Assembly (NCBI GenBank): GCA_963748815.1
Contig: CAVVKJ010000008.1
Location: 96,001-160,000, forward strand
DNA from: an uncultured Gemmatimonadales bacterium
GTDB taxonomy: Bacteria > Gemmatimonadota > Gemmatimonadetes > Gemmatimonadales > GWC2-71-9
Length of the DNA stretch: 64,000 nucleotides
Direction: 5' to 3'
Part shown: positions 12,898 to 32,521 of the stretch, in pieces
Layout: each line of letters opens with the position of its first letter
Numbering within the stretch: position 1 is the first letter of the stretch
Made by a program: the position numbers and the translations under genes
Notes under the pieces: generated by a model
The model's database searches: none
What the model was told of the DNA's origin: nothing
What the model saw: the letters and a program-made list of their open reading frames with translations, nothing else

Positions 12898-13509
12898 ATG
12901 ACTACAACTCAGAATCTCGTGGTACGAAACTTCAACGATCGCGCCGAGGGCCTCGCGCATTTCATGCTGCGGGCCGGAGCGGCGCCGCGATTCATTGCGA
13001 TCGACGACCAGGCCGGTTGCCCGATGGATACCGCCCTCGCCGCCCTCGAGTGGACCCGGGTGGTCGGCATCCTCCGGGATGACGACCTCCTGCACGCCGG
13101 CCGGCTGACCAGCGAAACGGCCGCCGCCGTCGTGGAGCGCAAGTCCGATCGGGGTCCGCAGTTCGTCTACCTCGGCCCGCGCCTCGACGCCCCCCCCATG
13201 GACGTCTTCGAAGGCGCGGTCCTGTACGACGAGCCGGGCGTCAAGGCGGTGGAGTTCAACCAGCGGGCGCACGCCCTCGCGCACTTCCTGCGGGCCACCT
13301 CCGGCGTCGGCGCACTGATGGCGCTCCTCGGCCGGCGCGCCCCCGAGCTGCGGCACCTGCGGCGGTGGCTCGGTCCCATCCTCCAGGAACTCGACGCGCC
13401 CCGCCCCCTCATGGCCGGATGGTTTGCCGCCTCGGCGGGCGGCTGCCTCTTCGCCCTTCCCGAGGGCGACGTCGTTTGCCGGTACATCGAAGTGGGCCTC
13501 GACCCGTGA
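12898..13509 (+). CDS. Hypothetical protein with an internal repeat
   Basis: Strong GC3 pattern; FNDRAEGLAHF and FNQRAHALAHF repeats. Confidence 0.75.
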   Translation: MTTTQNLVVRNFNDRAEGLAHFMLRAGAAPRFIAIDDQAGCPMDTALAALEWTRVVGILRDDDLLHAGRLTSETAAAVVERKSDRGPQFVYLGPRLDAPPMDVFEGAVLYDEPGVKAVEFNQRAHALAHFLRATSGVGALMALLGRRAPELRHLRRWLGPILQELDAPRPLMAGWFAASAGGCLFALPEGDVVCRYIEVGLDP

Positions 13510-14075
13510 GGCGCCTCCTGGTCCTCGCCCTCTGGGCCTGCGCGCTCGCCGCTCCCCTCGCGGCCCAGGTCGGCCGGGAACACTTCCCTGTGGCGGAGGA
13601 CACCGCGCTCGACGCCGCGCACGCCGTGCAGCAGTCGGCGTTCCTCGTGCTGCGCGACTCGACGGCGTCGATCAGCGCCGCCGGCGCCAAGCTGATGAGT
13701 GACCTGACGCCCACCAGCTCCGTGGTCTGGATGCGGGCGCGCGCCGGTGCGGTCGCCGCTGCCTGTGCCCGCTCCCAGGCCCCCCTCGCGCACGCGAGAA
13801 CGGTCACGGAGCAGGCGGCGTGGCCCAACAAGAACCAGAAGAAGGCCCAGTCCGACCTGCTCAAGGAGATGACGAGCTTCACGCGGGAGCTGACGAAGTG
13901 CCAGGAAGAGTGGACCGTCCTGGCCGCCGACACCAGCCAGACCACGTTGCGCGAAAAGAGCCCGCACGAGATGCAGAAGCTGAATGTCGAGTTGGACAAG
14001 TTCAACCGCTCCGCGCGGACGTACCTTCAGTACATCAGCATCAAACTCCCCCCGCCCGGCAAGGCAGCCCCCTGA
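13506..14075 (+). CDS. Secreted helical hypothetical protein
   Basis: GTG overlaps the upstream TGA; signal peptide RRLLVLALWACALAAPLAAQ. Confidence 0.75.
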   Translation: MRRLLVLALWACALAAPLAAQVGREHFPVAEDTALDAAHAVQQSAFLVLRDSTASISAAGAKLMSDLTPTSSVVWMRARAGAVAAACARSQAPLAHARTVTEQAAWPNKNQKKAQSDLLKEMTSFTRELTKCQEEWTVLAADTSQTTLREKSPHEMQKLNVELDKFNRSARTYLQYISIKLPPPGKAAP

Positions 14076-14111: not shown

Positions 14112-14195
14112 TGTGGATACACATTTCCACATTGGGTGGACAAGCCTGTTACAGGGCTGTCCAGCATCGGTTTATGCGTCCACATTCACCCCACA
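14112..14195. promoter_or_regulatory. Cluster of DnaA-box-like nonamers
   Basis: TGTGGATAC 14112, ATTTCCACA 14123, GGTGGACAA 14135, GCGTCCACA 14176, CACCCCACA 14187, compared with consensus TTATCCACA. Confidence 0.45.
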
Positions 14196-14227
14196 TGAAA
14201 TCGCGTAACCCGAATAAATACAGGCAC

Positions 14228-14255
14228 TTGCGAGATTTTCACCGCGCCCTAGCTT
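14228..14255 (+). promoter_or_regulatory. Sigma70-like promoter facing an ORF-free region
   Basis: TTGCGA-N16-TAGCTT. Confidence 0.55.
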
Positions 14256-14259
14256 AGGG

Positions 14260-14619
14260 GAGCATCTGGACAGGCTGGACTGGCGCTCTCAGGGCGCCCG
14301 GATGGCCGATTCAGGTGAGTTCGGACCGGAGGAGCAGGGGAGGGGACCGATGCTGTAATGGCGCGGTTGCCGATGAGCCTGGACCAAGCCGGCCGAACGG
14401 GTGGAGCCAGTCGCGCGCTCTGCCCACCCCGATCTGGCGCCTCGGGGTGCCGTGCGAAGGGACGGTCCGCGACCCGACCCGACTCGCAGCGCTCGCAACG
14501 ACGACCTCGGCCGGCCACTGCGCTGGCCGGGGCCATGACCGAAGGGGCTCGGCCCCGACGGGTCATTGTGTGAAGCGGCCGCCCGGTGAAGAACCGGGCG
14601 GCCGCTTCTGCTTTGCTTT
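14260..14619 (+). ncRNA. Candidate novel structured ncRNA (about 350 nt)
   Basis: Lies between a promoter and a terminator with no credible ORF; many nested helices and loop-loop complementarity (see findings). Confidence 0.65.
14572..14619 (+). terminator. Intrinsic terminator
   Basis: 16-bp perfect stem GAAGCGGCCGCCCGGT-GAAGA-ACCGGGCGGCCGCTTC followed by TGCTTTGCTTT. Confidence 0.9.
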
Positions 14620-14632
14620 CACGACCTCTCCC

Positions 14633-15610
14633 TCACCCGCCCCAGTCGCTCCGGCCGCGGTAAGCACGGCGGCGGTCGAGTTGCCAGAGGGTCCGGGCGC
14701 TCACCAGGCTCTCTCCCTCGAAATTTCCCTCGTCCGCCAGGGCATCGGCCATGCTCGCCGTCTTGGCGCTCGCGTTGTCGGCGTAGTGCAGCACCTCGGC
14801 CTCGAGCGTCATCGGCGCCACGGCGGCCCCGTACTCCAGCCGGCCGTGATGGGACAGCACGAGGTGCTGCAGGATGGCGAGTTCCTGATCGGTGCACGGC
14901 ATCGGGTGGGCCGCACGCACCGCGCGGTCGAGCATGAGCGCGCCGAGGACGACGTGGCCGTGCAGCGTGCCAGCCTCCGACATCGTGAACAGCCCCCCCT
15001 CCCAGCCGTAGGACTCGAGCTTGCCGATGTCGTGCAGCAGGACGCCGGCCAGGACGAGGTCCTGCTCGGCGCGGCAGACCCGCGCGATGGCCCGGGCGAT
15101 GGTGGCGACCTCGGCGGTGTGCTTGAGGAGTCCACCCAGCACGGCGTGGTGCCCGGCGAGGCTGGCGGGACAGGCCTCGTACCGCAGCCGAAAATCGTCG
15201 TCGGCATAGAAGAGATCGAGCGTGGCGGCCAACCGCGGCCGGACGATTTCGGCGCGCCACCCGTCGAGCGTCTTCCAGTAGGGCGCGGGGTCGCCGATGG
15301 AGGGCACCAGTTGGCCCAGATCGACCGCCCCCTTCGGCAGCGGGCGAAGCGACGTGACCTTCAGTTGCCGATGCCCGCGGTAGAGCGCGATTTCGCCGAT
15401 GACCTGCGCCACGTCGCCGGGCGCCAGCCCCGCGATCTTCGGCTGGTCCTCCTGCCAGAACGGGGCGCTCGGCAGCCGGCCACTCGCGTTGCCGAAGGTG
15501 AGGATGGTATGCGGGGTGTCGCCCCCCCGGCGCTCGACCTCCAGGATCAGCAGCGGATCCTGGATGCGCTGGCCGGTGGACAGGCCCGGCAGGTCGGTGG
15601 GGTGGCTCAT
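14633..15610 (-). CDS. yhaM: YhaM/Cbf1-family 3'-5' exoribonuclease (OB fold + HD domain)
   Basis: N-terminal OB fold; HHAVLGGLLKHT, LLHDIGK, GHV, SHHG and YAD HD motifs. Confidence 0.85.
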   Translation of the reverse strand: MSHPTDLPGLSTGQRIQDPLLILEVERRGGDTPHTILTFGNASGRLPSAPFWQEDQPKIAGLAPGDVAQVIGEIALYRGHRQLKVTSLRPLPKGAVDLGQLVPSIGDPAPYWKTLDGWRAEIVRPRLAATLDLFYADDDFRLRYEACPASLAGHHAVLGGLLKHTAEVATIARAIARVCRAEQDLVLAGVLLHDIGKLESYGWEGGLFTMSEAGTLHGHVVLGALMLDRAVRAAHPMPCTDQELAILQHLVLSHHGRLEYGAAVAPMTLEAEVLHYADNASAKTASMADALADEGNFEGESLVSARTLWQLDRRRAYRGRSDWGG

Positions 15611-32431: not shown

Positions 32432-32503
<72 letters not shown>

Positions 32504-32521
32504 CTTGCCCCAGAACGACTT

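Follow-up and report, generated by a model that had tools for sequence, protein, structure and literature searches.

Large, strongly conserved bacterial RNAs without an assigned function are rare, and those that have been solved serve basic jobs. In the available parts of its descriptions (PMC12968392, PMC10861870), the raiA motif RNA or ModT (RF03072) is a single-locus, abundant, trans-acting RNA, with a compact core, two pseudoknots and optional peripheral arms (PMC12968392). OLE RNA, with its proteins OapA/OapB/OapC, is a large ornate RNA of ~600 nt that contains a kink-turn, has a dedicated protein gene next to it and is linked to stress (PMC9723947). 6S RNA (RF00013) and Ms1 (RF02566) are described in the available part of PMC9130861 as long hairpins with a central bubble, and the smtA motif, also named Soda Lake RNA, in that of PMC11109978, as found only in Thioalkalivibrio, upstream of smtA.

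Here we analysed a 64,000-nt stretch of DNA from an uncultured Gemmatimonadales bacterium (the window) and found that positions 14262-14615 form an independent gene for a structured RNA, equipped with a conserved promoter and terminator of its own. It belongs to a large structured RNA class that is real and absent from catalogues. The raiA RNA is the closest known RNA in behaviour, sharing all the properties listed above. OLE RNA comes nearest in layout, as it too has a kink-turn and a protein gene beside it, and also shares the ornate fold and the stress link; the window RNA differs in its length (350-430 nt) and in that its candidate partner can be lost and has no Pfam or NCBIfam family. With 6S and Ms1 RNA it shares a free-standing gene, apparent abundance and a length of 200-400 nt, but its fold is pseudoknotted and multi-domain rather than the central-bubble hairpin of the available account. 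With the smtA motif it has in common a length above 350 nt, lineage restriction and support from covariation, and the two are set apart by description alone.

A stand-alone RNA gene with its own promoter and terminator

The RNA gene (~350 nt) lies on the forward strand, as do all features below unless stated otherwise, and its ends are placed by its promoter and terminator. The sequence-only reading had proposed a promoter, and the sigma-70-type elements TTGCGA (14228-14233) and TAGCTT (14250-14255) are in place, separated by 16 nt. This -35/-10 layout recurs in 97 of 122 model matches, with a spacer of 16 in 82 and 17 in 15; a strict sigma-70 scan did not have the window promoter among its listed promoters. 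The intrinsic terminator (14572-14618) contains the 16-bp stem at 14572-14608 that had also been proposed, and in 17 same-genus copies this stem is 94% paired with 15 two-sided changes. With its own promoter and terminator the RNA has nothing to regulate in cis.

No conserved ORF is present, in agreement with the original claim that there is no credible one: the 71-codon ORF at 14358 has a start codon in 7 of the 17 same-genus copies and undergoes frame shifts. In Rfam 15 no family reached its gathering threshold at the locus (best score there 23.3 bits against 61), an E-value search at the locus was also empty, and seven homologous loci gave nothing relevant, in keeping with the novelty originally suggested. 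The RNA is not RNase P RNA or tmRNA, copies of which lie elsewhere in the genome (275.6 bits on contig C5 and 137.8 bits on contig C10), nor SRP RNA, as scanning the locus with Rfam turned up no SRP family. The sole Rfam match within the window is a tRNA-Cys at 32432-32504. With the terminator included, the folding z-score was -4.8; leaving it out gave -1.8, a value equalled or bettered by 7 of 100 shuffles, and the core by itself gave +0.2. Folding energy from a single sequence is weak support, and the case for the RNA rests on covariation.

The core is built around two covarying pseudoknots

The core consists of hairpin A (14400-14424, stem 14400-14407/14417-14424), hairpin B (14425-14449, stem 14425-14432/14442-14449) and, within 14453-14493, stems C (14453-14457/14484-14488) and D (14459-14465/14474-14480) with an invariant GA bulge at 14481-14482. 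In a kissing helix, GUCGCG of loop A (14410-14415) pairs with CGCGAC of loop D (14468-14473), while in pseudoknot 2 positions 14436-14440 of loop B pair with 14489-14493; both helices covary. Among 23 distinct family sequences, 98.3% of the cells of the core pairs were paired and 14 of 39 pairs showed two-sided changes (0 of 500 shuffles), whereas slid controls dropped to 35-46%. The two pseudoknots together were 97.9% paired with 35 two-sided cells in 62 more divergent rows (0 of 500 shuffles as high), or 96.3% for the kissing helix and 99.7% for pseudoknot 2 taken separately, in an alignment that was made by a model without pseudoknots, includes one weak antisense match and has cells that count related sequences rather than events. 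Few unpaired core bases are invariant (14408-14409, 14450, 14466 and 14481-14482), and because the conserved loop bases are engaged in tertiary pairs, no guide-like strand is left.

The fold first drawn from the window alone survived in part. The helices CACCCCGA/TCGGGGTG, ATGACC/GGTCAT and GGGGC/GCCCC and the hairpin at 14399-14425 are kept in the genus. A loop-loop contact had been predicted from the right loop, and that loop does make a covarying contact, but its partner is 14468-14473 and not 14361-14369: in 74 diverse copies the pairing 14361-14369/14408-14416 was 55% paired with 5 two-sided cells. In the same copies the proposed long-range helix 14316-14324/14479-14486 was 75% and 72% paired (1 and 5 two-sided cells) and GGACCG/CGGTCC was 71% paired (2 two-sided cells); the strands of all three failed helices pair elsewhere, with covariation. 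The second pseudoknot and the kink-turn described below were absent from that fold. Homologues have now been collected from relatives and all core helices carry compensatory changes. These data support the original proposal that the RNA is structured and non-coding, acts in trans, makes a loop-loop contact and belongs to a class not yet catalogued.

The kissing loop bears on kinship with raiA. In one raiA copy, GCCAGUCGC is the loop that takes part in a pseudoknot of 6 bp, and these 9 bases are identical to those of hairpin A. If the window RNA were a remote, rewired relative of raiA, this identity would be explained, as would the two pseudoknots, trans action and abundance of both RNAs (for raiA, PMC12968392), the UGCGA complementary to loop A that follows hairpin B just as the raiA partner follows P5, and an extra copy of the RNA behind an HPF gene. 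An apical loop in a 6-bp PK1 is a raiA feature that is found here as well, and the 6-bp helix covaries, but by covariation the partner of loop A is a hairpin loop. The topology thus differs, with a loop-loop kiss and without a P1 that closes the ends, and the window RNA further departs from raiA in its kink-turn arm, 3' multi-junction domain, linked protein and occurrence in Gemmatimonadales rather than Bacillota/Actinomycetota. Sequence and alignments lack three features that define raiA, namely the end-closing P1 with GU/GGU bulges, the A-rich P3 internal loop and the UUAGAxGUAA linker. The RF03072 model gave no match at the locus at E<=10, whereas a control raiA copy scored 139 bits, and our core model gave no match on raiA RNA. 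We therefore consider such kinship quite unlikely. The pentamers UCGCG, UGCGA, CGCGA and UCGCA (within 14411-14488) would permit loop A to pair with 14453-14457, the raiA partner position; the A-D kiss is preferred by covariation, and a switch between the two pairings is conceivable from the sequence.

Peripheral arms and length forms

The variable 5' hairpin P1 (14263-14317) is dispensable, being missing from short forms. Its helix TCTGGA/TTCAGG, noted at the outset, is 96% paired with 10 two-sided changes in the genus, and GGCGCTC/GGGCGCC, proposed along with it, is paired in 90 of 113 cells. The P2 arm (14320-14397) has stems that are 91%, 97% and 84% paired with 59-89 two-sided cells in 74 copies. 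By the rules for kink-turn motifs P2 contains a kink-turn signature, with a non-bulged strand at 14339-14342, a bulge at 14372-14374 and tandem G.A/A.G pairs 14375.14341 and 14376.14340, and these tandem pairs are present in 68 of the 74 copies. The 3' domain (14494-14570) is closed by 14494-14498/14566-14570, paired in 83 of 85 cells, and in the window genus is a shortened form of a ~150-nt multi-junction domain that is found in most relatives and whose stems covary (81 sequences). The terminator loop of the window genus (14588-14594) reads GAAGAAC, a word that hardly varies where it recurs in one junction of the relatives' longer 3' domain; the loop may be left over from the deletion by which the RNA became shorter in this genus.

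Accordingly the RNA measures ~430 nt in most relatives and ~350 nt in the window genus, and in some lineages the ~95-nt core stands alone. In 9 of 122 matches the -35 box lies 30-38 nt before the core, and in seven of these nine core-only forms a terminator follows 34-64 nt past it. Since these forms start directly before the core and most end soon after, it is the core that all forms retain. Natural deletion variants thus delimit a core of ~95 nt that is small enough for probing and cryo-EM, and which would be expected to fold into a compact three-dimensional platform that is the working part of the RNA.

The RNA is confined to two families in the genomes searched

A covariance model of the core, built on window positions 14392-14497, was applied to three Gemmatimonadales families, here termed f1, f2 and f3. 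It matched 60 of 61 genomes of f1, 24 of 27 of f3 and 0 of 62 of f2, and in a sample of the phylum 70 of 71 f1, 2 of 2 f3 and 0 of 77 other genomes. These tallies include genomes flagged as unpublished (G030, G101 and G259), on which alone no claim hangs. A BLAST search with 14200-14640 was positive for 35 of 36 genomes of the same family, and in some genomes the RNA is present two or three times.

A pattern scan of GTDB returned at least 120 rows; among the 80 listed, the model gives scores of 62-123 bits to 61, and all of these are labelled Gemmatimonadales, Gemmatimonadota or similar, three bearing the submitter's label 'uncultured Gemmatimonadaceae'. The other 19 listed loci (18 labelled as other phyla and one as a Gemmatimonadaceae MAG) had no model score and were taken as chance. 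The same approach found 10 candidate loci in metagenome contigs and no match in viral contigs. As the scan pattern has fixed spacing, remote relatives in other phyla could escape it. The range known from the genomes searched is narrow, comprising two families within a single order.

Searches of the open literature, covering the main text of the motif surveys, yielded no description of this RNA, and no paper on gemmatimonads together with ncRNA and structured RNA or with 6S RNA; the main text of the 26- and 50-genome surveys makes no mention of gemmatimonads.

Neighbouring genes and upstream DNA

The RNA had been said to converge on a YhaM-like gene. A convergent HD-domain (YhaM-like) gene is indeed present on the reverse strand at 14633-15607, but it is a mere neighbour and is not co-distributed with the RNA, which is tracked instead by the gene at 12898-13509 (see below). 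The HD-domain gene is patchy, being present in 35 of 61 f1, 33 of 62 f2 and 16 of 27 f3 genomes, and so occurs in the family without the RNA as well. The DNA around it in 14 f2 genomes contained neither the RNA (best score 14.8 bits) nor the partner gene. In several f2 genomes (L236-L249) a conserved small gene, whose product starts MRKPRP, lies downstream of the HD-domain gene, at the place that the RNA takes in f1. On the other side, the gene at 13506-14075 encodes a protein with a signal-peptide-like N-terminus and no Pfam match, and is missing between the protein gene and the RNA in many relatives.

Alignment identified a conserved element at 14205-14230 that overlaps the -35 box and resembles an IHF site; this combination occurs once in the genome. 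Further upstream of the promoter is a cluster of DnaA-box-like hexamers (14112-14195, no strand assigned), at least two of which are present at 85 of 90 loci (a raw count). The contig's cumulative GC-skew minimum is ~2 kb away, at window position ~16300.

These elements, and the 71-codon ORF that ends at the terminator, are what would speak for the locus not being an RNA gene at all and instead being a small ORF, a cis leader or DNA conserved at a replication origin. Such a reading is extremely improbable, as the ORF is not conserved, compensatory changes occur in all core helices and extra copies elsewhere keep the fold. The origin of replication was set aside in particular because dnaA is encoded on another contig (C19), which also has the densest box cluster. 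With dnaA and its own box cluster placed there, the IHF-like and DnaA-like elements more likely serve promoter regulation than an origin.

A linked gene encodes a protein of no known family

The gene at 12898-13509 encodes a 203-aa protein of no known family with two ~100-aa repeats, and is a candidate accessory partner. Of 151 genomes it was found in 85, and these are the ones with the RNA, this co-presence being counted among kin and partly on shared contigs, and in the phylum in 156 of 166 f1, 5 of 5 f3 and 0 of 229 other genomes. In f1 it lies in tandem upstream of the RNA, whereas in f3 and one f1 genome it is downstream and convergent. Among the genomes examined the protein was never seen without the RNA. 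Conversely, nine of the ten f1 genomes without the protein gene were checked and eight have the RNA. Within genus g18 the protein gene is kept in one of five genomes, the locus having one remnant and three clean deletions, and the RNA of the g18 genomes without it is intact (115-117 bits). As the protein has been lost in g18 and the RNA kept, the RNA is the retained part; since the RNA also occurs without the protein in the extra copies (none of 16 has the protein gene within 3 kb), it can stand alone. The g18 remnant of the protein gene (L260, genome G364) is decayed and lies upstream of the RNA.

The predicted model of the protein (pLDDT 84) is a two-repeat alpha/beta structure without membrane helices, and the protein is acidic (median pI 5.5). 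Pfam gave no match and NCBIfam, PDB-sequence, Atlas, Foldseek and VIA searches gave no convincing one. A profile search of 1.84 billion representatives returned 131 matches, apparently the same protein family and its fragments. Similarity to the nucleic-acid-binding WGR/AP2 folds was weak (Z 5.2-5.7, rmsd 2.9-3.6 over 58-73 residues) and tied with microcompartment shell proteins, and the lack of a fold match does not equal a new fold.

In ToxIN a protein gene has a pseudoknotted RNA next to it, the layout seen here, and we considered that a type III-like toxin-antitoxin system might be present, in which the RNA would neutralise the 203-aa protein. The one-sided co-occurrence of RNA and protein would also fit. 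However, such a system is very unlikely here. The RNA is single-copy, vertically inherited and near-universal in two families, it is a single unit downstream of or convergent with the protein gene without tandem repeats, and it stays intact after protein loss; no ToxN, CptN or TenpN family and no HEPN family or fold was matched, and viral contigs contained no copy.

OLE RNA itself is not present at the locus, which has no Rfam match to it, lacks a ~600-nt RNA and has no OapA next door. By analogy with OLE RNA and its Oap proteins, an L7Ae-family protein could possibly bind the kink-turn. An L7Ae-family gene is present in 56 of 61 genomes and also in 19 of 20 genomes of the family without the RNA.

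The RNA is present in RNA libraries

Part of the stretch is contained in 24 sequencing runs, 20 of which are recorded as RNA. All four RNA libraries examined, from four studies, gave contigs within 14274-14514, two of which show no difference from the window across 207 and 198 nt. The summed depth over the core was 53,467, 61, 92 and 286 in the four libraries against 7.5 or less in flanking bins, where the libraries were picked because the stretch is present, the depth sums several organisms and the contigs give neither strand, ends nor level. The contigs do not cover the promoter (14204-14270), the terminator or most flanking bins, and are not evidence of transcript ends. These data show that the RNA is present in RNA libraries, and their depth suggests that it is abundant; it may rank high in abundance among the non-ribosomal transcripts of a group that is widespread and uncultured.

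Extra copies and the possible role of the RNA

Extra copies elsewhere retain the fold. Seven of 16 adjoin genes for Usp, CBS, BON, phosphoribosyltransferase, PRPP-synthase or RtcB/HPF proteins (a raw count), a gene set typical of low-oxygen and dormancy regulons. At 8 of 18 matches without the usual promoter, a count that includes two duplicate records, a tandem TTCAY-N6-YTCAY occupies the -35 position, compared with 0 of 92 usual loci under a slightly stricter pattern. Replacement of the -35 box by this repeat suggests that such copies are activator-dependent. At L069:2993-3406 two degenerate tandem copies lie between hydrogenase-maturation and Usp genes, with broken kissing loops and an intact pseudoknot 2 in both, and at L081:1125-3119 an extra copy stands directly behind rtcB and an HPF/RaiA-family gene.

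The best explanation, to which we assign a probability of roughly 45%, is that the RNA, abundant, free-standing and of a new class, acts in trans as an RNA-protein module for stress or dormancy. It would act as a ribonucleoprotein in which the 203-aa protein is the accessory partner, binding between the two being predicted. Its role would most likely be in stress, stationary phase or dormancy, a context that comes from the extra copies only. The covarying core, the core-only forms, the linked protein gene, the kink-turn, the L7Ae-family genes and the library contigs favour this reading. Weighing against it are the acidity of the protein, its lack of a significant fold match, its loss in g18, its absence beside the extra copies and the L7Ae-family genes in the family without the RNA. 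The system offers a candidate partner of no known family, lineages from which the protein is gone and extra copies with another kind of promoter.

The core might instead act by itself in trans as a ribozyme or a small-molecule or ion aptamer, with the protein as a downstream client or bystander. The compact double pseudoknot with its few invariant unpaired bases would suit such an activity, as would the core-only forms and the survival of the RNA after protein loss, but no ribozyme or riboswitch family was matched in Rfam and a few primary copies (L068, L085 and L087) have a damaged kissing helix. We regard this as possible but doubtful. A bolder combination, in which the ~95-nt core is an undiscovered trans-acting ribozyme or ligand sensor, the protein is a cofactor of new fold and a remote ancestor is shared with the raiA core, is speculative and we hold it with similar reserve.

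The sequence-only reading had suggested a 6S/Ms1-like RNA, and a functional stand-in for these, binding RNA polymerase in stationary phase, would be in line with the RNA-library depth, the stress context of the extra copies and the finding that 151 genomes of the order contained no 6S RNA scoring over the cut-off of Rfam. The fold does not fit, however, as the conserved part is the double pseudoknot and the rod-like P2 is dispensable. The Ms1 model scored 11.2 bits at the locus against a cut-off of 162, and on the terminator only; the 6S model had no match in the genome itself. 6S RNA is also unseen, save for three weak matches, in the family without the RNA, which indicates that the 6S search is insensitive in this order. 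A stand-in for 6S or Ms1 is thus unlikely, and the RNA-protein module remains our preferred reading. The three weak 6S-like matches (L230-L232, 25-28 bits) all fall in family f2 and may be a divergent 6S RNA of Gemmatimonadales.
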